From an uncultured Candidatus Saccharibacteria bacterium (GTDB lineage Bacteria > Patescibacteriota > Minisyncoccia > Phycocordibacterales > UBA9973), in the NCBI GenBank assembly GCA_964625485.1, contig CAZVBK010000002.1, positions 1-36,917 of the forward strand: a stretch of DNA of 36,917 nt. The letters are read 5' to 3'. Below, one piece after another: positions 15,309 through 32,021 of the stretch. The position numbers and the translations under genes are program-made. The first letter of the stretch is position 1; every line of letters starts with the position of its first letter. Under the pieces are notes generated by a model, which searched no databases, was not told the origin of the DNA, and was given only the letters and a program-made list of their open reading frames with translations.

Positions 15309-15315
15309 GAATTGC

Positions 15316-15321: not shown

Positions 15322-15364
15322 CTACCTTCTGCCGGCTTCGAAACTTCACAAAACCGAGTAATTG

Positions 15365-15384: not shown

Positions 15385-15442
15385 AGTGCAAAAGATCCCC
15401 AGCCTTGATTTTTTAAGCTTAATATTATAGTATGTAATACAC

Positions 15443-15577
15443 ATGTCATTCACATACAAACCCAAAAAACGAAAAAGAGCAAAAAGCCACGGCTTTTTAG
15501 TTCGTTCTAGAACCAAAACTGGTCAAGGGGTGCTTAAGCGCCGAAGACAAAAGGGCCGAGCAAAGCTTTCTGTATAA
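15443..15577 (+). CDS. rpmH: 50S ribosomal protein L34
   Basis: Hand translation: [44 protein letters not shown] (44 aa). Canonical L34 sequence in the canonical position before rnpA. Below the track cutoff. Confidence 0.93.
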
Positions 15578-17418: not shown

Positions 17419-18729
17419 CTATTTTAGTGTTATTTCCCAAAGGAAGGAGTCTTTCTTGTTCACAAAGAACAAGTATTTTTCTGTCGGGTCTATTTGAAGT
17501 TTGATTCCGTCTACCTCTTCCCCGCCTGGCATGGTTATCGGATCAAGTATTAGATTTGTATTACCATTTTCTACGTCTATCAACCAGAAAGAATCGGAGA
17601 AAGAAATCTCTCCTTTATACCAAACATCTGGATAAGAAGATTCATAAATGAGTTTAGGGCTAGCACAATAAATAAATTTATTGGATTGAGACCAGGTACA
17701 TTTATCAGGAAGACCCTTTATTCCTATGGTCTTGGCTTCTCTGGTTTCTGTGTTGTAAATATTCATGGACATTACCCCATCACTATATAAAACCATTTTT
17801 CCGTCTGGACTCATTAAGGTTGTAAGTCCATTGATATTACCGAGAACTTGAGTGAAACTTTTTGTAGTAGGATTTATTTTGTACATATATCCAGGTACCA
17901 AAGAAGACGGTTTTGTTGTTAAGTTTATCGTGCTCGCATTAATCCAAGACGATAGCCATTCTGTAAAAGCGGAGTCAAACACCTGAGTTTTTTTGTCTCC
18001 AGTTGAACCAGCTGTTATACCCACAGAAGCATTGTTGGAATTAAATAAGTAGAACATTTTTGAGCCATCGTAAGACACAGACAGGTCGGTGATATTCTGA
18101 GGAAGAAATGTACCCTTTATTTCATTTGTGTTGCTTGTGTCTCCACCCAAAACTTCTTTAGGTAGTACTCCCACAAAGGTTTCTATTGTTCGGTCATCGG
18201 CTTTTAAGTATCGCATAACAACAGATTCTGCTTTAGCGCCGAAAAAAGCTTCGTGAATTCTTGGGATAATAGTAGAAGTAAATTTCCTCTCTTCTATTTT
18301 GTCAGCAAAGGTTTGATAGATATTACCGTTAGCCTTTTCTGTGTACCTTACCGCAGGCACAAACTCTGTTGTCGGTGCTGTTGGCGTCGTCTCTTGTTCA
18401 TCTATAGCCGGAGCGACTTCCTTGTATCTCTCTTTAGAAAATATACCAAACCCCGCTACTGGCATAGTGGAAACCTTTGTTAGCTTAATATTTGAGTTTA
18501 ACGGCTCTTCCTCGAAATCTTCATCGCCAGTTCCATTGTTTGGTGTTCCGGGTTTCGGGTCTACGATATTACTGTTACCAAAAGGGTTAAAATCAGAAAT
18601 AAAATTGGACCCATCTCCATCCCCAGTGTCCACTCCCCCATTGCCTCTGTTTAAATATAGATAAAGCAGTAACAAACCCACGACAAGGCCTAAGATGATT
18701 GCTAAAAGTGTAAAATTTCTTTTTGACAT
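17419..18729 (-). CDS. membrane-anchored protein with beta-propeller-like (TolB/PD40-like) ectodomain; last gene of the T4SS-like cluster
   Basis: N-terminal TM (FTLLAIILGLVVGLLLLYLYL), then a Gly/Asp/Pro-rich linker. Repeated beta-strand segments include MSPDGKMVLYS and EKYLFFVNKKDSFLWEI. Function unknown. Confidence 0.5.
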   Translation of the reverse strand: MSKRNFTLLAIILGLVVGLLLLYLYLNRGNGGVDTGDGDGSNFISDFNPFGNSNIVDPKPGTPNNGTGDEDFEEEPLNSNIKLTKVSTMPVAGFGIFSKERYKEVAPAIDEQETTPTAPTTEFVPAVRYTEKANGNIYQTFADKIEERKFTSTIIPRIHEAFFGAKAESVVMRYLKADDRTIETFVGVLPKEVLGGDTSNTNEIKGTFLPQNITDLSVSYDGSKMFYLFNSNNASVGITAGSTGDKKTQVFDSAFTEWLSSWINASTINLTTKPSSLVPGYMYKINPTTKSFTQVLGNINGLTTLMSPDGKMVLYSDGVMSMNIYNTETREAKTIGIKGLPDKCTWSQSNKFIYCASPKLIYESSYPDVWYKGEISFSDSFWLIDVENGNTNLILDPITMPGGEEVDGIKLQIDPTEKYLFFVNKKDSFLWEITLK

Positions 18730-18742
18730 ATTATATTTCTAA

Positions 18743-20038
18743 TTATCTACCACTTGTGGACCAATGCCAAGCCTCTGAAGGAAGGTTTATAAAACCATAA
18801 GTCTCTGCATTCTTATCTAGCCAAATAAAACAGGGACTGTTTTTGTCCGGTATTCCTCTCGTACTACCATTACAAGTAAAGTCTACTGCTAAGCCGGTTT
18901 CATGCATTGATGTGCCAGGGAAGGCTGTTGGAGGTTTGCATTGTGACGGAGGTGTGCTGTATAGGTCACCATTGCAGTGCTGAGCTCTCAGTTGCATCTG
19001 GCGGGCACGAGTCCTCCAACCCCAACCACCCAAATTTACCCCTTGGGCTTTAGCCGCTGCTATCATGTCAGTAAGTTTTTGGGCGATACGGCCACAAACA
19101 GTAAAATTTCCGCCTGCTGTGCTTACGCTTTTTATACCCTCAGGACACCTACTCGGGGTTGCAGCTGCTCCAGCTGGAACCCCTGTTGGGAAATTACTGG
19201 CAGTTGGTACCACTCCACCGTCGGAGTCCATACCAATTGTTACAAGTACGGCATCTTTTATCTGAGGATCGGTTATTAGTAGGTCTGGGTTTATCGTGTT
19301 TAATACAACATAAGAACCAAGCGCCAGTATTAATCCTCCTATTGCACCCAATATTCTTTTCTTTCCCTCATCTTTATGCGACACCAGCTCTGTGGTCATG
19401 TATTCTATTCCCCCTACCACTATCATTAGCATCGCCAAGACAGCGCAAATACCTATGAACAGTCTGATCATCAGGTTTAAATAGGTGCTAAACGAATTTG
19501 ATTTAGTTGCGTCAAAGTTTTGCCCGTCGAAATTACCTCCCATAGAAGGAAGAGGGGTCAGTAATTTGTAGTTTCTTGCTCCGTCAGGCAGACAACTGGT
19601 TTTTCCGCTGGCGTCAGTGTAGGACACTGTGTTCGTAGGACAGTTGTTCGGGTTATTTGAACCCATTCCTGTAGTACTAGGAGTAGCTACTGTTACTTGG
19701 ACACTGTTTGAGGCATATCCAGTCGCACTTGCAGTGATCGTGAAAGTTCCCGCAGGTGAACTGGCGCCGTGGACAAAATCTACTGCACAGAATCCTACGC
19801 TTGGAGAGATTGAGCACAATGTTGGAGACAGCGCTCCTCCTGTTGTAGAAAAATTTATATTTACGGCAGTGGTTTTAGGTGAAGGCAGAGCAACTGTTAT
19901 TTTGGTTTGTTGTCCTGGTTGGATTGTTGCCACCCCTGCTCCTATGTGTAGTTGAGGCGTCTGGGCAAGCAAGACACCTGGCAAAAATATGCTAAGTAGG
20001 ATAATTAGTATTAAAAATTTCTGTGGCCTTTGGTTCAT
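18743..20038 (-). CDS. tripartite envelope protein: signal peptide + Ig-like domain, T4SS-pilin-type double-TM module, C-terminal M15 (VanY-like) peptidoglycan peptidase
   Basis: Signal peptide FLILIILLSIFLPGVLLAQ. The pilin module YKLLTPLP...YLNLMIRLFIGICAVLAMLMIVVGGIEYM...ILGAIGGLILALGSYVVLNTINPDLL matches the CPR/monoderm T4SS_pilin (TrbC/VirB2-like) pattern. The C-terminus carries LAS-metallopeptidase motifs SMHETGLAVD and SEAWHW. Confidence 0.65.
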   Translation of the reverse strand: MNQRPQKFLILIILLSIFLPGVLLAQTPQLHIGAGVATIQPGQQTKITVALPSPKTTAVNINFSTTGGALSPTLCSISPSVGFCAVDFVHGASSPAGTFTITASATGYASNSVQVTVATPSTTGMGSNNPNNCPTNTVSYTDASGKTSCLPDGARNYKLLTPLPSMGGNFDGQNFDATKSNSFSTYLNLMIRLFIGICAVLAMLMIVVGGIEYMTTELVSHKDEGKKRILGAIGGLILALGSYVVLNTINPDLLITDPQIKDAVLVTIGMDSDGGVVPTASNFPTGVPAGAAATPSRCPEGIKSVSTAGGNFTVCGRIAQKLTDMIAAAKAQGVNLGGWGWRTRARQMQLRAQHCNGDLYSTPPSQCKPPTAFPGTSMHETGLAVDFTCNGSTRGIPDKNSPCFIWLDKNAETYGFINLPSEAWHWSTSGR

Positions 20039-20039
20039 T

Positions 20040-21047
20040 TTAAAATCCTATGGTTATGCTCTTACTTGCGGTTTGGAACAGCTTATCTGTGTTTTCAATA
20101 TCAAGCCTCAGCGTAGATGCGCCAGATATTCCCTCTTGTACTGTTAAGGGCATCATGTTTTTATTGTAATTCCTTATTTCTTGCATTTCTTCGTCTATAT
20201 ACCAGCGGAATACCCAGATAGGATAATTGAATTCTTTTGGAGATATATAATATGGCGCAGCGACCAAAACCATGCTTTGATCTATAGTGTGACCATCCTC
20301 CAAGGCATTGTTCCAGTCCACTCCAAAAACAGCGTCTTTTTTATAGAAAGTTATCTCAGGTTCGGATGCTGAGGTTGTAATACTTGCCTCTGCGGAAGCG
20401 CTTTGGTCTAAGGTCGAAGCAACGACAGACACACTACTAACTGGCTCCAGGAAGTCGCTCATAAACACATAAGAGTTTTTTCCGTACCCAGATCCATCTG
20501 GGTCATTAGTGTAGTCCTTTTTCCAAGAATAGGTGAGATTTTTAGGATTGATAGTTCCATTACCAGATTTTATCTCTGGCATAGCCACTATTTTTACATC
20601 ACTACCCTCTGTCAGCAGGGCTTTACCCTTATAAAAAGGTGGAACGTAAGCATCATTTGCTTGCCACAATAGAGTCATGACAGCTGGTTTGATGTTTAGC
20701 CTTTTCCTCAATTCCCCGTTTACTGTACCAATGACAACTTCTATCTGAGTGGTGACCCCAAGAGCCCCAGATTCAATGCTAAATGACTTTTTGCCCACCC
20801 CAGACAGAACACTTTTGCCGTTAACAAGCCAAGTTATGAGGAGACTGTCTAGGTTTAGAGAATATGTACTTAGTGTTAGGCTCACCTCTTCATGAGGATT
20901 TGGGTTTTCGGGAACCGAAGTTAGGAGTATGTCAGTTGCTGAAACGGCCAATGCTTTTTCTGGAATACCAAGAAAATAAAAAGCAAAGATGAAAATCGGT
21001 AGCATAACCGAAAGAACTGGAAGTACCGATGAAGTTTTTAATCTCAT
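20040..21047 (-). CDS. secreted/anchored protein, probable tandem beta-sandwich repeats; unknown function
   Basis: N-terminal hydrophobic segment (VLPVLSVMLPIFIFAFYFLGI). Three segments each contain a Trp-centred strand (ITWLVNGK, TYSWKKDY, VFRWYIDEE). No recognisable catalytic motif. Confidence 0.45.
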   Translation of the reverse strand: MRLKTSSVLPVLSVMLPIFIFAFYFLGIPEKALAVSATDILLTSVPENPNPHEEVSLTLSTYSLNLDSLLITWLVNGKSVLSGVGKKSFSIESGALGVTTQIEVVIGTVNGELRKRLNIKPAVMTLLWQANDAYVPPFYKGKALLTEGSDVKIVAMPEIKSGNGTINPKNLTYSWKKDYTNDPDGSGYGKNSYVFMSDFLEPVSSVSVVASTLDQSASAEASITTSASEPEITFYKKDAVFGVDWNNALEDGHTIDQSMVLVAAPYYISPKEFNYPIWVFRWYIDEEMQEIRNYNKNMMPLTVQEGISGASTLRLDIENTDKLFQTASKSITIGF

Positions 21048-21053
21048 AATTTA

Positions 21054-21059
21054 ATTATA
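21054..21059 (-). promoter_or_regulatory. -10 hexamer TATAAT 6 nt upstream of ATG 21047 (possible internal promoter)
   Basis: Minus strand reads GGTTATATAAT-TAAATT-ATG. Confidence 0.35.
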
Positions 21060-21064
21060 TAACC

Positions 21065-21089
21065 AAAGGGCTTTTTCACAAAGCCCTTT
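21065..21089 (-). terminator. intra-cluster hairpin after the virB4-like gene (attenuator or mRNA-stabilising stem)
   Basis: AAAGGGCTTT-TTCAC-AAAGCCCTTT, 10-bp perfect stem, 4 nt after the VirB4-like stop. The downstream U-tract on the minus strand is only TTTGGTT, so termination is probably partial. Confidence 0.45.
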
Positions 21090-21092
21090 CCT

Positions 21093-22946
21093 CTAACTCG
21101 TCTTCATTTCTGAGGCCTCTAGGTCCATCTTGGATTTCTTTATAGAAAGTAGTTGTGATGGATCAGAAGTAATAATCTGGTCTTCGGTATAAGAAGAAAT
21201 AACCTTTATGGCTACGTGCTTGAGACCGGCAAAGAAAATACCCTCCCCTACTCCGGATTCCAAAAGAAGATATTTTTCTTCGTTTGTTAGGTTGAAAGTT
21301 TTCTGAAGGACGTCTATCGTCGTCGGAGATTGTTTTAGTAAGAGTTGGATAGAAGAGTTGGTGACAATAGGCACACCATATGGAGATTTCATAAAGTCTG
21401 CCGCGTCTTGAGTGATAGTGGCCAGACCCAGATAGTATTTTCTACCTCTTTTGGCAATGGAGTACAAGAAAGATGCGGTGTCTTCGGACTTCATCATCCA
21501 CCAAGCCTCGTCCACTACTAGCAATCTCTTCTTGAGAGTTTTACGAATAGCGTTCCAGATGTAGTGCATGATTATATACATAGCTACTGGCTTGAGCTCG
21601 TCTTCCATATCTCGCACAGAGAAAACCACGAATTTCTTGTTTATGTCTACGTTTGATGGGCGGTTTAGGAATGTTGCCCATGTGCCTTTGGTGTACTTTG
21701 CTAGTCTTTGGACCACAGACTCACTCCCTTCCATACCAGTTAGAACCATTTCAAAGTCGGAAAGAAGTGGCGGTTCGATAGACGCGAAGTCTGAGTCTGC
21801 AGTGATGTCTTTGATGGCATAAGTCTCAGAGATTGCCCTGTCGACGATAGAATCCTCTTCTGGGGTTAGTCCTCCCAACATAAGACGGAAAAGACCGACA
21901 AGGTTTATGATGTTTGAACGTAGCACGTCCTCAGGAGCTTCGTCTTCTCTAGGTATCGGAAGTTCAAAAGGGTTGATGTGGTGATCCGAAGAAAGTGAGA
22001 TATTGAAATACCTACCGCCCACTGTTTCAGCCAAATATTCATATTCCCTTTCAGGGTCTATAACAATTACATCGATATCAAACATTAGTGAACGAAGTAT
22101 TTCTAGTTTAGTGGCATAACTTTTACCAGAACCAGACTTTGCGAAAGTCACAGAGTTGTAGTTTTCTAGTGAAAAACGATCAAATATAACGAGACTAGAG
22201 TTGTGCCTATTTACTCCATAGAGTATTCCCTTATCTGAAGTTAGGTCAAAAGAAATAAATGGGAAAACACTAGAAAGAGGCTCAGAGTTAAGCTTTTGAT
22301 GGATATTGAGAAGGTCTGAGCCTATAGGTATGACGCTCTTAAAACCATCCTCTTGTTGGAAAAGGGCTGGTTTGATGTAGATAAGCTTGGATTCGAGCAT
22401 GGATTTGATTTCGTTCTCCAGTTTAAATAGTTCTAGCTCATTGTCGGCATAGACTGTTATGTAGATACTTACATCAAACATTTTCTCTTGGGCTTGGACC
22501 AAGCTATCACGAAGAGAATCTAGGTCTTGGTAGGCGGTGTCGAGCATCGGGTCTCTCACCATTCCCTTTGCTTCTCGGACGCTTATCTGACTTTGGACTT
22601 CAGCTACTTTCTTTTGGAATTGGCGAAGTACTAGAGATGTGTCTATCGGATGTATGAAAATAGAAACGTCAAAGATTTTATCTAGGTTGATGATAGGCGA
22701 AAACCAGTTGTCGGTCAGAAATCTCGGATAAGAGATGATAAAGAACGTGCGGGCGATTTTGTCTCCGAGGTTTATGGACTTGGACTCGATTTTTAGGGCT
22801 GAAGGAGCGATGACGTCTTGGAGTTCTAGGTTTGCAGACTCATATATTTTGTCTGGGAGAACAGGCAAAACAGAGGAATTGATATCATTCGATCCCGTGT
22901 ATCCATCTATTTTATTTTTTCCAAAAACTTTATCAAAAATTCCCAT
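21093..22946 (-). CDS. virB4: VirB4/TrbE/TraC-family type IV secretion ATPase
   Basis: Walker A FAKSGSGKSYATK and Walker B RLLVVDEAWWMM. N-terminal VirB4-type domain (ARTFFIISYPRFLTDNWFSPIINL...). SD-like GGGGAG lies 6 nt upstream of the ATG. Confidence 0.85.
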   Translation of the reverse strand: MGIFDKVFGKNKIDGYTGSNDINSSVLPVLPDKIYESANLELQDVIAPSALKIESKSINLGDKIARTFFIISYPRFLTDNWFSPIINLDKIFDVSIFIHPIDTSLVLRQFQKKVAEVQSQISVREAKGMVRDPMLDTAYQDLDSLRDSLVQAQEKMFDVSIYITVYADNELELFKLENEIKSMLESKLIYIKPALFQQEDGFKSVIPIGSDLLNIHQKLNSEPLSSVFPFISFDLTSDKGILYGVNRHNSSLVIFDRFSLENYNSVTFAKSGSGKSYATKLEILRSLMFDIDVIVIDPEREYEYLAETVGGRYFNISLSSDHHINPFELPIPREDEAPEDVLRSNIINLVGLFRLMLGGLTPEEDSIVDRAISETYAIKDITADSDFASIEPPLLSDFEMVLTGMEGSESVVQRLAKYTKGTWATFLNRPSNVDINKKFVVFSVRDMEDELKPVAMYIIMHYIWNAIRKTLKKRLLVVDEAWWMMKSEDTASFLYSIAKRGRKYYLGLATITQDAADFMKSPYGVPIVTNSSIQLLLKQSPTTIDVLQKTFNLTNEEKYLLLESGVGEGIFFAGLKHVAIKVISSYTEDQIITSDPSQLLSIKKSKMDLEASEMKTS

Positions 22947-22965
22947 ATCGTACTCCCCTATTATA

Positions 22966-23610
22966 CTACATTTGGTCGAGACGTATCTTGCCTTGCAGTT
23001 CTCCTGGATTGAAAACTTTATAAAAAGCCTCCACTACTTCTTCTGTGCCTAGCTGTGCGGACTTGATGCCACAGCTTGATAATCCTTGCTGGACCACGCT
23101 CACCCTTTGTTCTAATTGGGATCTTTTTTCTTCAAAATCAAACTGTCGTGAGGCTTCTTCCTCGAGCTTGGCCTCTTTAGAGAAAAAATTCTTGAATCCC
23201 CCGTAGTTAGATTTTAGGCTAGTGTGACTATATGGTATGACCACAAAGAAACTTTTGGTCATGATGCTCACCGAGTCGGTAAAATTCCTTATGAATTCCA
23301 TGTATTCCTTAGTTTGCATTTTGAGTAGTGGTTCAGTTTGCAGATTCATCCTCTCTTCGAGCAGGAGAAGATATGGCCTGATGTCCAGACGCCTAGACTG
23401 CACTGCTATTTGCACAGAAAAATCCAAGGTGTTTAAAAAGTTTTGGAACTGGAGAATCGTCGCCCTTTGCTCATCTTCGGATTTCAAAGATAGGTTTACA
23501 GAGTTTGCTAGCACTATCGCTCGCAAACCCTCATCTTTTAAGATGACTATACCATCGCGCACTGCTTGGATGGGGACAAACTCTTGAGTTGCTTTTGCGT
23601 TTAATGCCAT
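22966..23610 (-). CDS. standalone protein resembling the N-terminal domain of monoderm VirB4 ATPases (no NTPase motifs)
   Basis: TQEFVPIQAVRDGIVILKDEGLRAIVLANSVNLSLKSEDEQRATILQFQNFLNTLDFSVQIAVQSRRLD and FFVVIPY follow the pattern seen at the N-terminus of VirB4/TraE-like proteins. No Walker motifs and no TM. Confidence 0.4.
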   Translation of the reverse strand: MALNAKATQEFVPIQAVRDGIVILKDEGLRAIVLANSVNLSLKSEDEQRATILQFQNFLNTLDFSVQIAVQSRRLDIRPYLLLLEERMNLQTEPLLKMQTKEYMEFIRNFTDSVSIMTKSFFVVIPYSHTSLKSNYGGFKNFFSKEAKLEEEASRQFDFEEKRSQLEQRVSVVQQGLSSCGIKSAQLGTEEVVEAFYKVFNPGELQGKIRLDQM

Positions 23611-23613
23611 AAA

Positions 23614-24045
23614 TTAATAATTATTTCTTTGATTGGGCTTCTTTAAATCTAACACATCTAGACTCCAAGCCAAGTCCCTAAGCTTACTGCCATCTAGTTT
23701 AGAGGTCGTGTGGTCTATGATAAGTTTTTTGTCAGCAGATTCGTCTTTGCTCTCTTTCTTTTCATAAGTTCTTCTCTTCCATATATATAGCTTGTCTTGC
23801 ATTAGGAATTTTAGGCCAGACTCGAGCATCTCCACAAAAGGTTTACCGTTAGGCTTGTAGAAAGTAAGTGAACCAGAAAGTGCGGCGATCATGACCATGG
23901 GAATCAAACCCAGGGTCAACCCTAGCCATTTATACAATACAAAACAGAGCCCTGCCCCACCTATCAAGTAAATAAACTCCCGAAAGGTAAAAGGTCCGAA
24001 TATTTTGTCTTCTATTTCTAAAAATTGTGGAACTTTGAATTGCAT
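23614..24045 (-). CDS. PrgI-family (VirB3-like) small membrane protein
   Basis: MQFKVPQFLEIEDKIFGPFTFREFIYLIGGAGLCFVLYKW... followed by a second TM helix. This is the characteristic PrgI-family N-terminus, positioned immediately upstream of the VirB4-related genes. Confidence 0.65.
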   Translation of the reverse strand: MQFKVPQFLEIEDKIFGPFTFREFIYLIGGAGLCFVLYKWLGLTLGLIPMVMIAALSGSLTFYKPNGKPFVEMLESGLKFLMQDKLYIWKRRTYEKKESKDESADKKLIIDHTTSKLDGSKLRDLAWSLDVLDLKKPNQRNNY

Positions 24046-24086
24046 AACTTTCTGCTTTACACTTTTACTTTATAAATATATGGGGT

Positions 24087-25061
24087 CTATTCATCAGGGC
24101 TTAGTCTGTATGGATCTGCTTTGGGTGGATAGGCTACGGGCGCCTTTGGTGTAGTTGGCTTTGCAATGTTGTCTAGAGAGTGTTCGGTTTTCTGGCTTCC
24201 CATTTGGAATGTTCCACCAAGCTTTTGGCTCAGAACTGGGGCTTTGGGTGGTACAGGGACAGGAGGGACTATGCTTTTCATGACTTCCGGAGCTTCAAGC
24301 TCCATAGCATTTAGGGTTACTGGCTGAGGAGCGACTGGCTTTGTCTCGTTTTCTGCAGGTCGAACTATTTTGGGTATATAAGCTTTTTCTTCTGGCTTAA
24401 CAAAAACCCCCATCATTTCCCTCCTTATGTCTTTCAAGACAGTGTCATTTACTTCATTTACGATCGTCCTACTTTCTGTTTCGTCTACCGATAGTCTAGA
24501 TTTTATTTCGTCAGCAAATTTATCCGGAGAGGTCGCACCCAACATGATATTTACAGTCACTTCTTCGAGTTTACCCATCTGGTCCACGGTGAGTTTGTGT
24601 TTCTGGGCTACTGCATAAAGTTTGTTTGCGTAGCCTGAGTTCTTGATGGCTCGTTGGATGTCCGTAGATAGAGACGCAAATCTTTGATCAAGATTACTTT
24701 CCACTAGATCATTTTCACCTGCCATTTCCTTTTCGTTTTGAGCAAAAACTTTCTCAAGATCCCCTTTGATGTCTTTGAGAATAGAGTTGTTTATTTGTTC
24801 TAGGATTTTTGTGCCGATATCCGCTGAGAGTTTGGAATTATTTTTTATGGTCTCCTCGTATTCTTTATAAGAAATAGCACCCAGCATGAACAGTGTGGTC
24901 TCGGTGGCGATATCGCTTGTTTCTTCTTCTGTTAGGACCATGTCCGAACAAATATTTTTCAGAGTTTCAAGCCAAGCCATGTCAGAAAAAACCTTTTGAG
25001 CTTGTGGTGTAAGCTTGGAATAATACAGGGCGATATTCTTTTGTAATTCTTGTTTATCCAT
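24087..25061 (-). CDS. soluble protein with an internal ~64-aa duplication and a Pro-rich tail; unknown function
   Basis: Repeat 1: LTEEETSDIATETTLFMLGAISYKEYEETIKNNSKLSADIGTKILEQINNSILKDIKGDLEKVF. Repeat 2: LTVDQMGKLEEVTVNIMLGATSPDKFADEIKSRLSVDETESRTIVNEVNDTVLKDIRREMMGVF. The C-terminus is P/V/A-rich. No TM. Confidence 0.5.
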   Translation of the reverse strand: MDKQELQKNIALYYSKLTPQAQKVFSDMAWLETLKNICSDMVLTEEETSDIATETTLFMLGAISYKEYEETIKNNSKLSADIGTKILEQINNSILKDIKGDLEKVFAQNEKEMAGENDLVESNLDQRFASLSTDIQRAIKNSGYANKLYAVAQKHKLTVDQMGKLEEVTVNIMLGATSPDKFADEIKSRLSVDETESRTIVNEVNDTVLKDIRREMMGVFVKPEEKAYIPKIVRPAENETKPVAPQPVTLNAMELEAPEVMKSIVPPVPVPPKAPVLSQKLGGTFQMGSQKTEHSLDNIAKPTTPKAPVAYPPKADPYRLSPDE

Positions 25062-25113
25062 TTGATTCTAAATTTATTTTTACTTTCTACTTTGAACTTT
25101 TCACTTTAGACTT

Positions 25114-27573
25114 CTAGTGATGTCCTCCGCCTCCTCCATGGTCACCTTTGTCTGGGGCATGAGCTGCGCTGGGTTTTCCGTGTCCGTCCCCTCCACCCAG
25201 ATCACTTAATTTCACATCAACCTTCATATTTTTTAACGATTCGTTTATGATCTGTCCAAGGTCACCCATGAAGTTGCCTTTTGGTGTTCCTGTGTCAAAC
25301 CCAGTTGCTTTCTTCATACCCATTCTCATTCCTGCGGCCACCGCGGTGATTATTCCCAAACCGACTTTTGCTGACAATCCCTCTCTTTTGTCTGTAGCGA
25401 TATTGGCTATATTTCTAACATCATAAGTTCCAGTTGTTGATTTTGCTGCCATTCTGTTTAGAATACCGACTGATTGTTTGGCTTCGTCTTGTATGTGATC
25501 AAAATCTGCGTTTGCTCTGGTTTTTGCCAGATTTTTTAATATGTCGTTAAATTCAGAATTTAGTGTATCTTCTACTCCCTTTTTGGCAGAATCTTTTAGT
25601 TCTCCAGTGGATGGGTCTATATTATTAATATCGTAACCAACTTGTTTAGTTAAGGCATCTCGTCTTTCCTTTTTGTATTGAGCTTCACCTTTTGCGTCGA
25701 CGACACCGTTTTCACTAATCAAAATATCTTTGTCGTCATTGTCGTAGCCTCTTCTTATTTGCTTCTCTATCTCTGCTAGTTTTTCTTTTCTAAAGGTAGA
25801 TTTAATTTTTTCTTCTTCTACCCCGGAGAGTCGATCGTTACCTACTCCTTCTAATCCAAGTTTCTTTTTTACGGCGTCTACTTCGTGTCTCGCGTGCTCA
25901 ATTTTACCAGAAGTTTTTTGGCTAGCGTTTATTCTTCCACCGATAATTGTCTTTAGGTTTGTCTGAGCACCTGCTGCCCCTGGCGTAGTCCTCTTGTAGT
26001 TTTCCCAATGATCATTGAAAGACCCTTGCTTGCCACCGAGCTCCCACTGACTTCTAGCTTTGCCGTAGTGCATAGCATCTTCTGTTCTAGAATAACCCGC
26101 CAATACCTTACTACCTTGTCTTCCCGCCGCAGCTGCACCTACGGCTGTTAGTGCGGCACCACCCAACACCAAACCGCCTGCAATTTTAGCACTAGACATC
26201 GCCATAGACCCCAACTGCCCAGAGCCCTTCTTTGCATAGTCGGTAGCTTTAATAAGTAAAATAATGAATATCAATGATGGTATGAGTATGAGTATGAGCA
26301 CTTGCATGAATTCCATTGTGTCTGTTGGCTTTGGCGTAAGAGGATGTTTAGACATCACGGCTATCAGATACAAGAAGAACATGAAAACTGGCGCCATAAA
26401 AGCACTTGATAGCAATTTGGTGGACCAGTTGGACCAACCTATCCCCTCCACCCCACTGAGTTTGGGCACAGGATAAGACATGAAAGCAAACGGAGAAAAT
26501 ATGATAAGGATCCAGAGTTCCACTAGTCTTCCCAAGAAGCTCAAACCGGAAATAAAGAAAGCATAGGCAGCAAATAGCATGATCGCTCCAGCAATGATCG
26601 CGATCATTATCATCAAAGAGGTGGATTCGCGAAGTGGTTCTGAGAGTATGCCGAATACCGTTACGCGTTTGTTCAACAACCCTTCGTCCATCATCCTAGT
26701 GATATTGAATGCGCCTACGAGTTGACCGGCTATGTCTTTTTCTGCCACGCCAGTGAAGCTCGGAGAGAGTGATGCGGAGTAAGCGACTTGGCTACTTATG
26801 GCTATTTTGTTGTAGATAGTCAACGCCATGATGTTTGAAGCATCGATAACGACTTTAGTAAAGAACATACTAAAGTTTATGAGCATGGCCATGATGATGA
26901 CCCAGACGATCATTTTATTGGAGTCATGCCCCCCGAGGCCAAGTATCATTTTGATAGCTATATACAGGAGAATAAAAATGAAGAAAATATTGGACAAGTC
27001 TCGTACTACTGCCCATGAGTTTTCGATGAAGCCCCCTTCGTATAGTTGGGTGCCTATCGACAGTGCCAACAATGAATTGAAAAGCTTGGCCGTAACCGTC
27101 AGGATACCAGCTGGGATACTGAAAAATATCCAGTAAGCAAAAGCCCGCAGACAACCTTGCATAAAATTGGCGGAAAAAATTTCACAATTTCGGATACTCA
27201 TCGCTTTTTCGAATTCTGTGGGTTCGTTGCCAGGGGTCGGCTGAACTGGAGCATTCCCTCCAGTATTGTTGTTACCACCGGTGTTTGCGACTGGGCCACA
27301 ATTCGCTATTGCTGTTGCTTGGGCTGAGTTTAGTGCGGGGGTCCCGGCAGGCAAAACATAAGCAGCAGCCAAGCACACCTCTTGAGGTGTTGCCGCCAAG
27401 CTCTGACAAGAAGAGTAATTTGGTAGTGTCCCCACTGGTGTTGATCGCGTAGTGTTGCTTAGGCAAGTCTGGAAAGGCGAAGTTCCCTGAGCGTTTATCT
27501 CTGTTTTCGCAAAGAAAACACCACCAACTATGGCAAGGGCGAGTATTATGATTTTTCCAATAATTTTTTTCAT
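25114..27573 (-). CDS. VirB6/TrbL-like polytopic membrane protein with Cys-containing exposed N-domain and long charged C-terminal domain
   Basis: Signal peptide, then a ~110-aa Cys/Thr/Asn-rich segment. Roughly 7-8 TM helices lie between residues ~140 and ~470 (FAYWIFFSIPAGILTV..., IFFIFILLYIAIKMILGL..., LILILIPSLIFIILLI). A ~330-aa K/E/D-rich domain follows, ending in GGGDGHGKPSAAHAPDKGDHGGGGGHH. Confidence 0.55.
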   Translation of the reverse strand: MKKIIGKIIILALAIVGGVFFAKTEINAQGTSPFQTCLSNTTRSTPVGTLPNYSSCQSLAATPQEVCLAAAYVLPAGTPALNSAQATAIANCGPVANTGGNNNTGGNAPVQPTPGNEPTEFEKAMSIRNCEIFSANFMQGCLRAFAYWIFFSIPAGILTVTAKLFNSLLALSIGTQLYEGGFIENSWAVVRDLSNIFFIFILLYIAIKMILGLGGHDSNKMIVWVIIMAMLINFSMFFTKVVIDASNIMALTIYNKIAISSQVAYSASLSPSFTGVAEKDIAGQLVGAFNITRMMDEGLLNKRVTVFGILSEPLRESTSLMIMIAIIAGAIMLFAAYAFFISGLSFLGRLVELWILIIFSPFAFMSYPVPKLSGVEGIGWSNWSTKLLSSAFMAPVFMFFLYLIAVMSKHPLTPKPTDTMEFMQVLILILIPSLIFIILLIKATDYAKKGSGQLGSMAMSSAKIAGGLVLGGAALTAVGAAAAGRQGSKVLAGYSRTEDAMHYGKARSQWELGGKQGSFNDHWENYKRTTPGAAGAQTNLKTIIGGRINASQKTSGKIEHARHEVDAVKKKLGLEGVGNDRLSGVEEEKIKSTFRKEKLAEIEKQIRRGYDNDDKDILISENGVVDAKGEAQYKKERRDALTKQVGYDINNIDPSTGELKDSAKKGVEDTLNSEFNDILKNLAKTRANADFDHIQDEAKQSVGILNRMAAKSTTGTYDVRNIANIATDKREGLSAKVGLGIITAVAAGMRMGMKKATGFDTGTPKGNFMGDLGQIINESLKNMKVDVKLSDLGGGDGHGKPSAAHAPDKGDHGGGGGHH

Positions 27574-27611
27574 GCTAATTCAACTAACAATTTAACTAAC
27601 CCCAAACAAAA

Positions 27612-30167
27612 CTAAAATGTCGGATCACCTGCGCGTTTGTACTCCTGGTCGTTAACTTCAAACAATGACATGCATTCAATATCAACTATAACTGGAGCAT
27701 ATGTCTTGGTGTAATCTCCGTATATTCCCTGTGCGTTCACCATCGGCAGTGTTTCATATCCAGGATTCCCCTTCGGGTTGACTACGTTTCTGAAAGTAAA
27801 GAAATTATTCGTTCCCAAATAGTTTTTATTAGAAGCCTCTCCTTGGCGAATTACTTCTCCGTGACTGTATCCACTGTTAATAGGCAGTAAGCAGAATTGT
27901 TCGAGCTCCGTACCGTTTGAAATATAGTCAACAATATTGTTTTTAAAGACACCACCAGATTTGCCGCCCAATGTGGTTATGGGACGTACTCCTACAGCGC
28001 TTGGTTGATAACTAAGATATTTCCTTGTGCGGTCAGTCGGTAGTCTAAATCCAGCCAGGAGTTTCGGTGCACCTCCTGGCGTGCCCATCCAGAAATAAGC
28101 AACAGGGTTTGGTGGTAGCCATCCAGCAGCTGTTCTTTCTTTATTGCAGTCGTCTAAAAGCGCCAAGATTCTTTGGTGTTTTTGTTCTATTAGATCTTTT
28201 TCGTTTCTAGTGTTTTCAATGCTGGCTTCACTTGCTATTTGGTTCTCGAGTGCTAGGTATTGTCTTCTAATTGTTTTTAGTTGGGTGTCTGGTTGTGACC
28301 CAGGAGTTGGCTGAGATGTTATCGCGGACAGTGCTCTCTCGATAGCCTTTAGTTTTGCAAGGACTGTTGTCTTCTCCCTTCTTTTATCTGTAAATTCTTT
28401 AAGCTTTTGTCCGAGGCTATCTGTTTCTTTCACGGCATCGATAAATAGCGCTGAGCTAGGAAGAGCCAAACCACCCCTTTGAGGATAATTTGGATCAGGC
28501 ACCGTTATCATTTGGACACTTATCCAGTCTTTAAACTCGCTGACTGCAAATTTTAAATCTTCTATTACGCCATGCACAGCTTTAACTTTCTCCTCGTCTT
28601 GGCTGGATGTTTCGTCCATTAGTTGACCATTGGTGATCCTCTCTTTCTCTGCGTCTAGTCTAGCTTCCCAACCTTTGTTTGGTCCTGGGATACACTGGTC
28701 TAATTCTTTGACTTTAGGCCATGAGAGATCTAGTAGTTGTATTATGCCCAATTTGAGAGTGTTTACCGGCCCCTTGCCGTCATTATTTGCTGTTCCGTCA
28801 TGGGTCATAATATCAAGCTCGGCTTGAGTTAATTCTACGGCGCCAGGGACGAACTTTGTGATAGGTAGACCGTTTATGTCTACTGTATTTACAGTACCAC
28901 CACTGACTTGTTGTTTGAAAACTCCCAAGTCTACTTCAAGGTTTGTCCAGTTGTTTCCGCTTCCGCCTGTTACAGAAGAGTCCAGACTGTTGCCATAGTA
29001 GTCGAAATCATCGGCTGCTGGCGCAGGGTTGCTGTTGGTTGCGAGTCCTCCCAGACCGCTATCTTTCGCAAAGAACTTCACAAGCATCGCATCAAATATC
29101 GCACCAATACCTGTGCCCAATGCGGCGGCGAGTTCTTTTTGGGTTTGAGTTGTGCCGAGTGTTTTGGTTATCTGGCTACCTATGACAAATCCAGGAGTTG
29201 TTTTTTTGAGTCCTTCAGGGCAGGTGTTTGTCAAAGCCCAGGTGCTATAAGCGGAATTTTTCAAATTGTCGTATTGTTGTGCGTATTGGTTTTGAGCAGC
29301 GATATAAGCAGGGTCAAATTCATCTCCTCCATACTTGTTTATATCAGGAAAAACAAGACTTGCTGGAGGCGTGAAATTAAAGCTTGGACGATTGTATTCA
29401 TTTTTTGAAAGACTGTTGTAAGCAGGACGGGATTCACAGTAATCCGGAGAAAGAAAGCCCAAGCCTTGTTGGAGCATGTCGTTCACCTTCTCCGCTGGCT
29501 TTTTTATTGCTCCGTCTATACGCCTAGATATTTCTTGGCTGGCGACAGCGTCGAACCCCATAGGATTGTTCTGAGGGAACTGAGTATTTACCAGAAATGC
29601 ATCCCAGCCACCGGTCTCGAAGTTAATGCGTAGGTTTCTTTGAGCTACTGGGTCATTGGTCACCTGACTTAGGGAGTAAGCCGCGTTATCCTGAAGTTGT
29701 TTTTTGTATGCGCTTATGACATTTAAAGCATACTGTTTGCCGAAGGGGTACTGGATGTTGTCATAGCCGATGACTTGTATAAAGTCTTTTACTTGAAACT
29801 TGGCGACATCTTTGAAAAAAGATTGAGGATTTTCGAGAAATAGCGGTGCTCCGTGGAAACCGCTATTGATCCAATTCACGGTGCTCTTAGTCATTTCAGC
29901 TAGCGCCCTTTTTGCCAGCACCATCAACATTTGTTTGGCAATTTCTTTAACAAAGTCTTTAAGTGATAGTGATGTTTGCGTCCCTTCCGCTGCGGCACTG
30001 CTTCCTGAGAATATCGTGAGTATGCCACGCTGAAGGGCGGCTACGAAATCCGTAAACTGAGCCTCTGCTTTTTTAGGCTTAGCAAAAACAGCCACAGATG
30101 GGGCTAATATAGCAAGAATCAATAGGGAGGAGATGAACTGTTGGATTTTTTTATTTTGAAAATTCAT
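27612..30167 (-). CDS. large signal-anchored/secreted protein, no recognisable family
   Basis: 851 aa with N-terminal FISSLLILAILAPSVAVFA. The rest is hydrophilic, with a central coiled-coil-like stretch (KLKEFTDKRREKTTVLAKLKAIERAL...). No motif I can name. Confidence 0.45.
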   Translation of the reverse strand: MNFQNKKIQQFISSLLILAILAPSVAVFAKPKKAEAQFTDFVAALQRGILTIFSGSSAAAEGTQTSLSLKDFVKEIAKQMLMVLAKRALAEMTKSTVNWINSGFHGAPLFLENPQSFFKDVAKFQVKDFIQVIGYDNIQYPFGKQYALNVISAYKKQLQDNAAYSLSQVTNDPVAQRNLRINFETGGWDAFLVNTQFPQNNPMGFDAVASQEISRRIDGAIKKPAEKVNDMLQQGLGFLSPDYCESRPAYNSLSKNEYNRPSFNFTPPASLVFPDINKYGGDEFDPAYIAAQNQYAQQYDNLKNSAYSTWALTNTCPEGLKKTTPGFVIGSQITKTLGTTQTQKELAAALGTGIGAIFDAMLVKFFAKDSGLGGLATNSNPAPAADDFDYYGNSLDSSVTGGSGNNWTNLEVDLGVFKQQVSGGTVNTVDINGLPITKFVPGAVELTQAELDIMTHDGTANNDGKGPVNTLKLGIIQLLDLSWPKVKELDQCIPGPNKGWEARLDAEKERITNGQLMDETSSQDEEKVKAVHGVIEDLKFAVSEFKDWISVQMITVPDPNYPQRGGLALPSSALFIDAVKETDSLGQKLKEFTDKRREKTTVLAKLKAIERALSAITSQPTPGSQPDTQLKTIRRQYLALENQIASEASIENTRNEKDLIEQKHQRILALLDDCNKERTAAGWLPPNPVAYFWMGTPGGAPKLLAGFRLPTDRTRKYLSYQPSAVGVRPITTLGGKSGGVFKNNIVDYISNGTELEQFCLLPINSGYSHGEVIRQGEASNKNYLGTNNFFTFRNVVNPKGNPGYETLPMVNAQGIYGDYTKTYAPVIVDIECMSLFEVNDQEYKRAGDPTF

Positions 30168-30206
30168 TTTCTGGTTTAACCTTGTTCTTATTATATAATT
30201 TAAAAC

Positions 30207-31202
30207 TTAGTTATTCAATTTATTCACTATTCCTGCGTTCAGTTTAATGATACTTTCTTCAAGTAATGCAGAATTTTTCTCAAATTGGCTCATGGCTGAC
30301 ATGGCGATGATGGTGTCAGTGCCGAAAAGCTGGATGTCTTCTAGCGTCTCCATATTTTGTTCTAGAGAATTCATGAAGTTTAGGTGAAGTGGCATTATCG
30401 AAATCGGTACTTCCATCTTGGCCATTCCAGACAGTACGGCCGAGGTTTGTTTTATTATAGGGTCAAGTTTTAAAAGAATGGTGGAATCCGGCTCTTCTCC
30501 GCTAGCTATAAATTCTTGGATTATGTCTAAAACATACATGTCCTTAGAGTAAATCAGATACAGCCTTCCTAGGTCATCGTTGTATTTTGTAATAGCTGTT
30601 TTGTCGTCTTTAGCAGAGATCTTGATGTCAGACGCTAAAAAAACCTTACGAATCGGGACGTTTTGAAGTTGTCCTGCAAGTGTCTCCCCTAGTTTGTCTA
30701 CGGTTTCTTGGTCAATGGGTCCTGATTGGGTGAGAGTAGCCACTGTAGAGAAAAGCTCTCTTGAGAATTTGTCGGTTTGGGTAAGTACCTCTTCTTCGTC
30801 TCCTTCGATTGGAGTAAAGCCAGATTCGTTTTCTGCCTTGAGTTTGGCTATGGCTATGTCGTCTTCTCTGCCGTCCCCGTCTGTGTCTCTTACGTTCGGG
30901 TCAGTGCCCCAAAGATTCTCCTCCCAGTCAGCTACGCCATCTTGGTCTGAGTCTAGACTCACCAAGTCCCCTATTTTCTCTTCTCCAAACGCGAGACCTA
31001 TTTGGTTTGCCACCTCATTTTTGTGCTCAGATTTTGTTTTTAAGAAGAAAACGACGCCAAGAAATAGCACCGCTAAAACGATTACAAGAATCCTTTTGTT
31101 TTTTAGCCAATTAAATTTAGTTATGCTAGTAATTATAGCACTTCTGCCTAAGTAAACTAGCAAAAAAGTGTGAAAAACTATTGCTTTGCAAGATTTATCC
31201 AA
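30207..31202 (-). CDS. membrane-anchored protein with thrombospondin-type-3-like Ca-binding Asp repeats; first gene of the cluster, start uncertain
   Basis: TM ILVIVLAVLFLGVVFFL, then DSDQDGVADWEENLWGTDPNVRDTDGDGREDD (DxDxDG-type repeats). The track start is a TTG that overlaps rsmA by 25 nt. Alternatives are in-frame TTG 31163 or a start near 31124 (see findings). Confidence 0.5.
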   Translation of the reverse strand: MDKSCKAIVFHTFLLVYLGRSAIITSITKFNWLKNKRILVIVLAVLFLGVVFFLKTKSEHKNEVANQIGLAFGEEKIGDLVSLDSDQDGVADWEENLWGTDPNVRDTDGDGREDDIAIAKLKAENESGFTPIEGDEEEVLTQTDKFSRELFSTVATLTQSGPIDQETVDKLGETLAGQLQNVPIRKVFLASDIKISAKDDKTAITKYNDDLGRLYLIYSKDMYVLDIIQEFIASGEEPDSTILLKLDPIIKQTSAVLSGMAKMEVPISIMPLHLNFMNSLEQNMETLEDIQLFGTDTIIAMSAMSQFEKNSALLEESIIKLNAGIVNKLNN

Positions 31203-31978
31203 TCTTCGAGTTTTAGGTTTTCAGCACGAGAGTTTTCGAGTCCGAGTTTGGTGATTTTTTCAGTCGAAACAATGTTTTTTAGATTACCGGAAAGCATTTT
31301 TCTCTTGTGGGCAAAACCGGTTTTAACTATTTCCCAAAAAACCTCTTCCGAGATGTTGTTTTCCTGGAAAGTGCCCCTGGAAATGCCTGAAATTGAGATA
31401 ATTGCCGAGTCCACCTTGGGCGCTGGAGAAAAGTACCTTGCTGGGACTTTCATGACAAGCTTTGGATCCCCGTAAACCCTTACAGAGATTGATAGAATGC
31501 TTTCTTTGCCATCCCTAGCCACTACCCTTTCAGCCACCTCTTTCTGGACCATAAGGACCATTCTTTCTGGTTGAGTGTGCCCGGCGAGGAATTTCTTGAG
31601 TATTGCGCCCGTGATGTTGTAAGGAATGTTGGCTATAACTTTGTAACCGCCAGACTTGAGTCCGTTCTCGCTGGGCTCGAACTCTAAAGCGTCCCCCTCA
31701 ATCAACATAAATCTTTTCGTTTTTATTTCTTCAGCAAATTTCTCTCGGAGTGTTTCTAGTAGGTCTCTATCTTTCTCTATCGCTATCACCAGACCAGCGT
31801 TTTCTAAAAGTTTGGCAGTCAATGCGCCCTTACCCGGCCCGATTTCTAAAATTGTGTCTGAGTTTTTTATTTCTCCTACTTCAATTATTTTATTTAGCGC
31901 AGGCACAGACTTCAGGAAATTTTGCCCAAGGGATTTCTTTGCCTTATGTATTTTGGGAAACTTGTTTAAATTTTGCAT
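31178..31978 (-). CDS. rsmA: 16S rRNA (adenine1518/1519-N6)-dimethyltransferase
   Basis: KKSLGQNFL, SAM-binding EIGPGKGALT, ANIPYNIT. 266 aa. Confidence 0.93.
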   Translation of the reverse strand: MQNLNKFPKIHKAKKSLGQNFLKSVPALNKIIEVGEIKNSDTILEIGPGKGALTAKLLENAGLVIAIEKDRDLLETLREKFAEEIKTKRFMLIEGDALEFEPSENGLKSGGYKVIANIPYNITGAILKKFLAGHTQPERMVLMVQKEVAERVVARDGKESILSISVRVYGDPKLVMKVPARYFSPAPKVDSAIISISGISRGTFQENNISEEVFWEIVKTGFAHKRKMLSGNLKNIVSTEKITKLGLENSRAENLKLEDWINLAKQ

Positions 31979-32021
31979 TTTACTTTATACTTTTAACTTT
32001 CTACTTTAAACTCTGCGTCTT

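Follow-up and report, generated by a model that had tools for sequence, protein, structure and literature searches.

An origin-proximal Patescibacteria-type secretion cluster, probably derived from conjugation machinery, carries a mosaic pilin gene

What does a set of type IV secretion system (T4SS) genes do beside the replication origin of a bacterial chromosome, if neither a relaxase nor a coupling protein comes with it? The question is raised by contig CAZVBK010000002.1 of assembly GCA_964625485.1, deposited as an uncultured Candidatus Saccharibacteria bacterium, of which the whole stretch of 36,917 nucleotides was analysed (the window). Between rsmA and jag it carries ten consecutive open reading frames (ORFs) on the minus strand, from 31202 down to 17419, with intergenic gaps of 1-52 nt; we call them g1 to g10, numbered from the rsmA side to the jag side. 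An earlier, sequence-only reading had listed the same ten ORFs with the same gaps and coordinates, had taken them for a core-genome envelope machine on a monoderm T4SS scaffold and not for a conjugative element, and had supposed the system, by the make-up of its orphan partners, to be undescribed. The layout is correct, and the fixed synteny and a CD1110-type VirB4 bear out the general interpretation. The supposed novelty has to be given up, because the system is already found in the literature (PMC10633639, PMC12102498, PMC12857230). In our analysis the cluster is, with a probability of about 0.82, a vertically inherited, origin-proximal Patescibacteria-type T4SS of a Paceibacteria (Nomurabacteria-like) genome, which would derive from MPF_FATA CD1110-like conjugation machinery minus its DNA-processing module. 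This is no new system, and its composition matches the published view almost point for point. What is new here is the structure of the pilin gene, g9, which is a mosaic of a conserved hairpin flanked by a hypervariable ectodomain and an exchangeable cell-wall enzyme.

To place the cluster among its relatives, a scan with VirB4 was made that kept one genome per species and gave 587 relatives, of which the best 80 served as comparison loci. The labels of these 80 are all Patescibacteria-type or unclassified metagenome-assembled genomes (MAGs; Paceibacterota, Nomurabacteria, Minisyncoccia etc.). Gene order was followed by tblastn of all window proteins and judged only where the contig extends far enough. 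It is evident that the order uvrD, rsmA, g1 to g10, jag, yidC, rnpA, dnaA, dnaN is kept in essentially all of these loci, with few local exceptions; the recurrence of this order beside jag and rsmA had been named by the sequence-only reading as a test of its view. The span from jag to rsmA is 14.1-18.1 kb in the relatives and 15.0 kb in the window, and an independent contig has the same arrangement in its gene calls. The upstream border rsmA/ksgA (31178-31978, minus strand; RrnaAD, 197 bits) has the same position in 25 loci, and the convergent downstream border jag/khpB (16941-17417, plus strand; R3H and KH domains) in 56. The ten genes are thus one co-inherited unit across many species, and the recurrence of the whole block in the same order in essentially all relatives examined indicates vertical inheritance and not an integrative and conjugative element (ICE). 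Many of the closest relatives were deposited as 'uncultured Candidatus Saccharibacteria bacterium', but these depositor labels look unreliable, because their VirB4 proteins, like the remainder of the locus, cluster with MAGs that carry the label Paceibacterota or Nomurabacteria.

An ICE, or a decayed ICE remnant that chances to sit near the origin, would explain why VirB4, PrgI and a TrsD-like protein, which are hallmark proteins of Gram-positive conjugation modules, occur together here. This explanation is effectively refuted. No domain of a relaxase, type IV coupling protein (T4CP), VirB11 or integrase was found in any large ORF of the window; no tRNA lies at the cluster borders, the sole tRNA gene of the window being tRNA-Lys at 884-957; and the search for flanking direct repeats gave short chance matches only. 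These domain scans and tRNA and repeat checks agree with the absences that the sequence-only reading had noted. The window has neither a relaxase together with VirD4/TcpA nor an integrase, att repeat or tRNA border, and among the relatives the block is not variably present; the same housekeeping neighbours stand in the same order in dozens of species. Moreover, the GC content of the cluster (0.40-0.47) is similar to that of the remaining window, VirB4 is more conserved than DnaA, and the literature comes to the same conclusion (PMC12102498).

What kind of machine do the recognisable genes encode? The VirB4-type ATPase that the sequence-only reading had seen at 21093-22946 (minus strand, 617 aa) is confirmed as one of MPF_FATA (CD1110) type. 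It matches the NCBIfam family NF045971 for CD1110-family VirB4 with 365 bits (cutoff 325) over model positions 182-733 of 752, and Pfam P-loop_TraG with E 2e-24. Walker A (AKSGSGKS, aa 269-276) and Walker B (LLVVDEAW, aa 475-482) are both intact. Over the 80 related species VirB4 is 76-89% identical, and it is the most conserved protein of the neighbourhood, with a median identity of 85% against 77% for DnaA and 70% for DnaN. Its identity exceeds that of DnaA in 57 of 58 loci, which is unusual for a secretion ATPase and points to a purifying constraint stronger than that on DnaA, in a comparison whose loci were picked by VirB4 similarity. The nearest VirB4s outside the candidate phyla radiation are of the CD1110 family, from plasmids of Firmicutes and Actinobacteria, with 29-36% identity. 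The gap between at least 76% to the 80 best relatives and at most 36% to plasmid VirB4s strongly suggests that the protein belongs to the Patescibacteria clade, membership being judged by similarity.

Directly upstream of virB4, the 214-aa product of 22966-23610 (minus strand) had been counted by the sequence-only reading among six orphans. It is instead a TrsD-like T4SS component corresponding to the N-terminal domain of VirB4, and the other five, g1, g2, g4, g8 and g10, stay orphans. It matches NF045975 (E 3e-10, model positions 102-254), TrsD NF041427 (E 5e-5) and NF045971 at positions 2-130, and its orthologue in one locus (L082) carries PF26593, TraC-like, in precomputed annotation. The gene is present in 80 of 80 loci with 49-80% identity. 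Because this protein matches the N-terminus of the NF045971 model and the ATPase matches positions 182-733 of the same model, VirB4 appears to be split into two polypeptides. The next gene, at 23614-24045 (minus strand), encodes a two-transmembrane (TM) partner of VirB4 of the PrgI family, the VirB3 equivalent, as had been proposed from the sequence: PF12666 is matched with 38.1 bits (cutoff 27) and TcpE with E 6e-4, the TM region is aa 33-63, and the gene is found in 75 of 80 loci with 36-67% identity. The membrane core of the cluster thus consists of the split VirB4 (TrsD-like N-domain protein and ATPase) with PrgI/VirB3.

The protein in the VirB6 position is g3 (25114-27573, minus strand, 819 aa), which the sequence-only reading had called VirB6/TrbL-like. 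Its topology and position agree with this name. The protein combines a signal sequence and an ectodomain with Cys residues with about seven TM helices (aa ~137-470), a hydrophilic C-terminal domain of 335 aa and a Gly/His tail, and its AlphaFold2 model has a mean pLDDT of 76, with 85-96 in the TM core. With at least five TM helices, a large hydrophilic domain and a place near the genes for VirB3 and VirB4, it resembles an 'extended VirB6', and its position matches that of Southlakia SEML1_0013, which was called VirB6-like with a structure-match score of ~0.50, read as a TM-score (PMC10633639). Homology, on the other hand, failed to appear in every sequence search. There is no TrbL/VirB6 match in Pfam or NCBIfam, a per-member Pfam scan of 45 orthologues gave a TrbL match in only one (E 0.14), a profile search against PDB found nothing, and tblastn of the TM core against plasmids found nothing. 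Profile searches of the cluster proteins recovered the VirB4, PrgI, T4SS_pilin and VanY families expected by the sequence-only reading, but not TrbL. The fold comparison by Foldseek against PDB was non-significant as well: the R388 TrwI/VirB6 chains 7o3v_G, 8rtd_I and 8rtd_H came at ranks 5, 12 and 18 (E ~1-2.5, TMt 0.30-0.36), the rank-5 chain having the top probability of the list (0.41) with TMt 0.36 and E ~1. The domain PF19590, precomputed for two g3 homologues, was not reproduced with our Pfam scan and was dropped. The g3 family has a conserved Gly/His tail (GGGGGHH) and, after the last TM helix, the motif LLxKATxxAKKGSG with several invariant positions. A 264-aa polytopic protein encoded upstream of PrgI in the Clostridium perfringens plasmid pSXP-169_2 (L081:7040-7834) has a similar end, LVKSGSWAKKLTG, and its comparison with g3 by hhalign is non-significant (E 0.13).

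The most informative gene is g9 (18743-20038, minus strand), which was analysed by Pfam and NCBIfam scans, TM prediction, a hairpin hidden Markov model (HMM) and clustering of tails. Its product has the order signal peptide, variable Ig-like ectodomain, YxLLxPLP, VirB2-type two-TM hairpin, NTINP and VanY/LdcB-type zinc peptidase. The hairpin (aa 156-254; 19277-19573) is the sole conserved part. The pilin module that the sequence-only reading had located in this ORF, at aa 181-240, scores 26.4 bits against PF18895, close to the cutoff of 26.6, and E 0.015 against TrbC/VirB2; among 45 orthologues PF18895 is matched in 42 (E < 0.01) and TrbC/VirB2 in 15. A purpose-built hairpin HMM found it in 69 of 70 orthologues at the locus and at no second site in the window. 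With a signal peptide, two hydrophobic helices, a short basic loop and a Pfam match, it is a hairpin of VirB2/TrbC pilin type. Since the loop between the two TM helices is rich in Lys/Arg, both flanks of the hairpin are predicted to be extracellular.

What the hairpin carries differs from genome to genome. In the window, the C-terminal part (aa ~300-431; 18746-19141) is a VanY/LdcB-like LAS zinc peptidase domain, which matches PF02557 with 43.1 bits (cutoff 25) and, in PDB, VanY-type D,D-carboxypeptidases (E 2.5e-8) and LdcB/YodJ (E 2e-4). Both motifs of the VanY/LdcB (M15B) type are present, SMHETGLAVD at aa 377-386 (SxHxxGxAxD) and EAWH at aa 422-425 (ExxH). The N-terminal ectodomain (aa ~31-155; 19574-19948) is Ig-like by weak matches, such as CarboxypepD_reg with E 0.013. 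In the orthologues the N-terminal region has 27-477 aa, and blastp sorts the 42 regions that reach 100 aa into 33 clusters unrelated to each other, some with TIG, Big_1, Filamin or CBM_10 domains. The tail is 154-280 aa long in 66 of 69 proteins, and the tails form 18 unrelated clusters. Labels obtained by Pfam on cluster representatives and by direct scans of ten further members cover at least eight Pfam families, namely NlpC/P60 (13 members), VanY, the window's own class (10), YkuD (5), SLT_2 (3), Peptidase_M15_4 (3), SLT (1), Amidase_2 (1) and CHAP (1, a weak match with E 0.0035); several classes are unlabelled. The two largest unlabelled classes have, by eye only, LAS-like (HxxxxxxxD...HxH) and SLT-like (ES...GLFQIN) motifs, and their profile searches against PDB gave nothing significant.

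The class of the tail hardly follows VirB4 relatedness. In no more than 14 of 66 genomes does it agree with that of the nearest VirB4 neighbour, and even among pairs with 90-95% identical VirB4 the class is shared in 18%. Two loci with 94.5% identical VirB4, L033 and L029, carry NlpC/P60 and YkuD, respectively. DNA homology runs through virB4 and g8, is lost in the N-terminal region of g9, returns over the hairpin for 175-340 nt, is lost again over the tail and resumes where g10 begins. The hairpin is bordered by the conserved motifs YxLLAPLP and (L)NTINPxLL, and in some genomes the same locus encodes a free-standing pilin of 160 aa that has the border motifs but no enzyme. The pattern extends beyond the comparison loci: an exhaustive profile search found the hairpin in 39,453 representative clusters (E <= 1e-3), and among the 142 best new representatives 93 have tails of at least 120 aa, over the same classes. 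In one g9 orthologue (L068:13882-15306) the pilin module appears twice within the same ORF, and at least two hairpins are likewise seen in 4 of the 142 database representatives, so tandem hairpin duplications occur in the g9 family. A 2025 survey has separate counts for pilins and for VirB1-like hydrolases near virB4 (PMC12102498), and no description of the fusion or of the cassette pattern was found in the searched literature, which included the main text of that survey but not its supplementary tables.

This architecture recalls polymorphic toxins (Rhs, CDI, LXG), in which a conserved module likewise carries a swappable C-terminal domain. In g9, DNA homology breaks exactly at the module borders, the motifs YxLLAPLP and TINPDLL. 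In contrast to these toxins, the g9 module is a T4SS pilin and not a toxin-delivery domain, the cargo consists of cell-wall enzymes only, and there is no adjacent immunity gene, g10 coming directly after g9. The likeness is therefore an analogy of logic and not homology.

On which wall would such an enzyme act? The pilin hairpin and the peptidoglycan enzyme are encoded downstream of virB4, where Gram-positive systems encode their VirB1-type hydrolase. One explanation is that the g9 enzyme is a plain VirB1 that opens the cell's own wall for assembly, the cassette diversity being neutral and the hairpin only a membrane anchor. Gram-positive T4SSs do encode a membrane-anchored hydrolase right after virB4, for example the 850-aa SLT protein of pSXP-169_2; it is established that PrgK, TcpG and CD419 use different catalytic folds (cited in PMC12102498); and the hydrolases downstream of virB4 in Southlakia are essential (PMC12102498; PMC10633639). 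Three observations speak against it, none of them decisive. The hairpin is a recognisable T4SS pilin in 42 of 45 orthologues and is also free-standing at the same locus. Among the cassettes are a carboxypeptidase of VanY type and an L,D-transpeptidase of YkuD type, neither of them an obvious hole-puncher. Finally, beside the hairpin there is a second, even more variable ectodomain, a pattern more typical of surfaces that face another organism. We consider this explanation a serious one, nearly as likely as action on the host wall. Because of the double hypervariability around a conserved hairpin and the non-lytic enzyme types, we lean slightly to the host wall rather than to the cell's own. 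A bolder proposal is that g9 is a polymorphic cassette locus, whose hairpin carries an exchangeable wall enzyme and a hypervariable ectodomain on, or released from, a pilus or channel at the site of contact, where they would breach or remodel the host wall and help to set the host range; this we offer as tentative and, on present evidence, rather doubtful.

How does the cluster compare with systems already described? Quinonero-Coronel et al. (2025) surveyed 3,035 genomes and found a monophyletic Patescibacteria VirB4 clade inside MPF_FATA, with TrsD, PrgI/VirB3, VirB6 and VirB2-like proteins near virB4, relaxases nearly absent, and the T4SS close to dnaA, dnaN, rnpA, ksgA and rpmH, explicitly for Paceibacteria (PMC12102498). 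In a 2025 review, such systems form an accepted subgroup of T4SSs (PMC12857230). The window shares with them the MPF_FATA VirB4, the adjacent TrsD, PrgI/VirB3, VirB6-position protein and VirB2-like pilin, the lack of a relaxase and of a T4CP near virB4, and the chromosomal place beside dnaA, dnaN, rnpA, ksgA and rpmH. It differs in nothing essential; the main text of the survey is without the accessory ectoproteins and without pilin and hydrolase as one mosaic ORF (PMC12102498).

In Southlakia epibionticum ML1, a Gram-positive-like cluster (SEML1_0006-0019) with pilins and without coupling protein or relaxase is essential for epibiotic growth (PMC10633639). The order shared with its genes SEML1_0005-0019 comprises a VirB6-like gene, at least one extra gene, PrgI, a small gene in the TrsD position (TrsD-like according to PMC12102498), VirB4, a hydrolase and an Ig-like exported protein; in neither cluster is a relaxase or coupling protein recognised, and both adjoin the chromosome start or origin. 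Only Southlakia has a divergent array of six free pilins, an NTF2-like protein, and lysozyme and peptidase encoded by genes of their own. The window, in contrast, has a single pilin fused to an enzyme, no recognised NTF2-like protein and other accessory proteins (g1, g2, g4, g8 and g10), and essentiality is shown in Southlakia only.

Among conjugation modules of the CD1110/CD1115 type, that of C. perfringens pSXP-169_2 has VirB4 of the same NCBIfam family, the order PrgI, VirB4, hydrolase, and, upstream of PrgI, a small protein with a signal sequence and a two-TM hairpin and a polytopic protein. Its layout, which would be the ancestral one, is MobC, relaxase, VirD4, hairpin protein, polytopic protein, PrgI, an unsplit VirB4 of 783 aa and the SLT hydrolase. 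In the window the DNA-processing genes are absent, VirB4 is split into 214 and 617 aa, the identity is ~32% and the locus is fixed on the chromosome. The hairpin protein of the plasmid (125 aa, L081:6599-6976), just before the polytopic protein, is pilin-like; the CD1110-type class of Gram-positive systems is usually said to lack pilins. Similarly, for the Mycoplasma ICE (Mbov_0395, pilin-like, and Mbov_0397, VirB4), the g9 hairpin matches NF045849 with E 6e-4, and NF045975 is matched by VirB4 with E 2.8e-79 and by the TrsD-like protein with E 3e-10, all scores being below the family cutoffs. These family matches suggest that pilin-like hairpins can be part of MPF_FATA systems in wall-less or monoderm bacteria. 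The Mycoplasma genes differ in that they sit in mobile ICEs, and we know of no enzyme fusion to their pilin-like protein.

Together with the core, five proteins specific to the lineage are inherited; one is presumably cytoplasmic, and the other four are signal-anchored ectoproteins. All of them remained true orphans in every sequence search, and g2 in the fold search as well. For g1, g4, g8 and g10, profile searches against PDB gave no relative of solved structure, and 113 of their orthologues, 31 of them of the g1 family, were put through one pooled Pfam scan, whose output is not split by protein. The largest is g2 (27612-30167, minus strand, 851 aa), a signal-anchored ectoprotein (TM aa 8-31) with a conserved N-terminal domain and a confident long helical bundle at aa 410-680 in its AlphaFold2 model (mean pLDDT 73.9). 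Foldseek against PDB and BFVD, a check that the sequence-only reading had suggested for its orphans, returned generic helical bundles only, none with E <= 0.001 and all with low TM-scores, and its profile search against PDB gave nothing significant, only generic helical bundles and tape-measure-like helices. It has 216 homologues, and all source-named ones are from Paceibacteria, Nomurabacteria, Patescibacteria or unclassified-bacterium MAGs.

The first gene, g1 (30207-31202, minus strand), encodes a signal-anchored envelope protein (TM aa 32-59) with an acidic, TSP3-type calcium-binding repeat (DSDQDGVADWEE...DTDGDG) followed by an ectodomain that is mostly helical by eye. TSP3_bac matches 11 of the 113 pooled proteins, and its assignment to g1 is a by-eye attribution from the repeat. 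The position of g1 is kept in 33 loci with 21-49% identity. If it starts with the TTG at 31202, g1 overlaps rsmA by 25 nt; the in-frame TTG at 31163, past the rsmA stop, is an equally plausible start. The only protein of the five without a TM segment is g4 (24087-25061, minus strand), soluble and presumably cytoplasmic, found in 50 loci with 20-42% identity and without relatives in Pfam, NCBIfam and PDB searches. By eye it has two helical repeats of ~100 aa each and then a Pro-rich linker; at its C-terminus D316, P317 and Y318 are invariant across 43 orthologues (consensus DPYRExPE). This D-P-Y looks like a docking peptide, which would make g4 a candidate adaptor or substrate.

The signal-anchored ectoprotein g8 (20040-21047, minus strand; TM aa 3-30), present in 75 loci with 28-52% identity, probably consists of three Ig-like beta-sandwich repeats, as judged by eye from a three-fold pattern. 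The pooled scan gave weak matches to Ig_3 (4), PKD_3 (3), BiPBP_C (3) and Big_1 (1), whose assignment to g8 is an attribution. The last gene, g10 (17419-18729, minus strand; TM aa 2-29), is a signal-anchored ectoprotein found in 69 loci with 30-59% identity; its stop (17419-17421) is 1 nt from that of the convergent jag. It has a probable beta-propeller, the weak matches to PD40 (3) and NBCH_WD40 (2) in the pooled scan being likewise attributed to it.

How might these parts work together? VirB4, the TrsD-like protein and PrgI would energise a channel and/or the assembly of a pilus through the g3 platform, with the g9 hairpin as the subunit of the pilus or channel. The extracellular part that touches the host cell would be formed by g1, g2, g8 and g10 along with the exported domains of g9, whose exchangeable enzyme would most likely act at the contact zone. 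Such a machine may move macromolecules between epibiont and host in support of the epibiotic lifestyle, and the literature on relatives suggests that it is probably indispensable. As for the direction of transport, we lean toward material being imported or extracted from the host. In a cultivated Minisyncoccota strain, tubular structures that extend to the host have been reported (bioRxiv 10.64898/2026.06.21.733656).

Another explanation would be a dedicated nucleic-acid import machine, ComB- or Ced-like, for the uptake of environmental or host DNA or RNA and not for attachment or export. Patescibacteria lack nucleotide synthesis, import of DNA or another macromolecule was proposed by the authors of the survey, and linkage of the T4SS to comF, recG and radA is seen in the class ABY1 (PMC12102498). 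In addition, uptake of host RNA and possible T4SS pili are described for a cultivated relative in a 2026 preprint, whose authors explicitly leave the mechanism of RNA uptake undecided (bioRxiv 10.64898/2026.06.21.733656). Against these points, no DNA- or RNA-binding component, translocase or nuclease was found in the cluster by Pfam and NCBIfam, and the same scans of cluster proteins gave no VirB7, VirB9 or VirB10-like domain of a ComB-type core, so that a likeness to ComB-type DNA-uptake systems would be one of function and not of domains. In Southlakia, moreover, competence requires ComEC as well as type IV pili, and the T4SS is essential regardless of ComEC (PMC12857230). We regard dedicated nucleic-acid import as rather unlikely.

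Alternatively, the cluster may be an organelle of adhesion only, in which VirB4 powers a pilus for host attachment and nothing is translocated. A pilin, many ectoproteins with binding-type folds (Ig-like, beta-propeller and TSP3) and the lack of a coupling protein in the cluster would fit this. However, type IV pili already serve adhesion in Saccharibacteria (PMC10633639; PMC12857230), a PilB-type ATPase is encoded in the window, and the extreme conservation of VirB4 and its partners would fit a more central role. Pure adhesion is, in our estimate, unlikely.

Several points weigh against the reading of the cluster as a macromolecule-transporting, Patescibacteria-type T4SS. The VirB6 homology of g3 is not demonstrable, so that its VirB6-like character, argued from position and topology, is unproven. 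A VirB8-like protein was not identified in the cluster, no coupling ATPase lies there that would recruit substrates, and no role can be assigned to five of the ten proteins. The VanY-type domain might only trim stem peptides instead of opening a wall. The evidence from transposon sequencing comes from another class, Saccharimonadia, with other accessory genes and free-standing pilins. Finally, the promoter and terminator scan of the cluster gave a result no better than that of shuffled sequence, so the idea of a single operon is unproven.

The surroundings agree with the origin-proximal place given to the cluster by the sequence-only reading. The left flank is a classical origin block, with rpmH, rnpA, yidD, yidC and jag on the plus strand and dnaA, dnaN and a DciA-like gene on the minus strand; dnaA is ~2 kb and the probable oriC ~3.5 kb from the cluster. 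The probable oriC segment (13752-13963, no strand) has five DnaA-box-like sites in the AT-rich 260-nt dnaA-dnaN spacer, out of 16 such sites observed across the window (9.1 expected), and the GC content of 13001-14000 is 0.31. As listed, the dnaA ORF (13965-15449, minus strand, 494 aa) overlaps rpmH (15443-15577, plus strand, L34, 44 aa). Since the DnaA_N domain starts at aa 52, the real start is probably Met45 or Met48 (~15316), and two further DnaA-box-like sites (15365-15384) would then lie upstream of dnaA in the dnaA-rpmH spacer. The small DciA-like ORF directly downstream of dnaN (12349-12606, minus strand) matches PF05258 with E 4.6e-4, below the cutoff, which would fit a DciA-type helicase loader at the origin.

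A 22-nt motif (TTTTTACTTTCTACTTTGAACT, plus strand) occurs once in the g3/g4 spacer (25077-25098) and twice in tandem in the uvrD/rsmA spacer (31977-32012). All copies are intergenic and upstream of minus-strand genes, and the motif could be a shared promoter or leader element. Further away, a PilB/GspE-type ATPase (4643-6340, plus strand; T2SSE E 2e-115, with MshEN domain), whose start overlaps the listed start of polA (2135-4678, minus strand), suggests the motor of a type IV pilus or type II secretion system 11 kb from the T4SS cluster. Upstream of uvrD/pcrA, an 896-aa protein (34181-36871, minus strand) is highly charged and partly of low complexity, with a Pro/Glu/Thr-rich linker. It was considered as a hidden T4CP or relaxase and rejected, as this charged, low-complexity sequence has no Pfam or PDB match.

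Finally, Patescibacteria make up a large share of bacterial diversity, and the T4SS is among the few systems shown to be essential for their host-dependent lifestyle, in one Saccharibacteria strain. The window provides a clean example of this T4SS from Paceibacteria. If the cassette proposal for g9 is true, g9 would be the first T4SS pilin to act as a scaffold by which exchangeable effectors are delivered. Should the exchanged enzymes prove to match the wall chemistry of the hosts, they would provide a readable host-range marker in metagenomes and a biochemical entry point into the mechanism.

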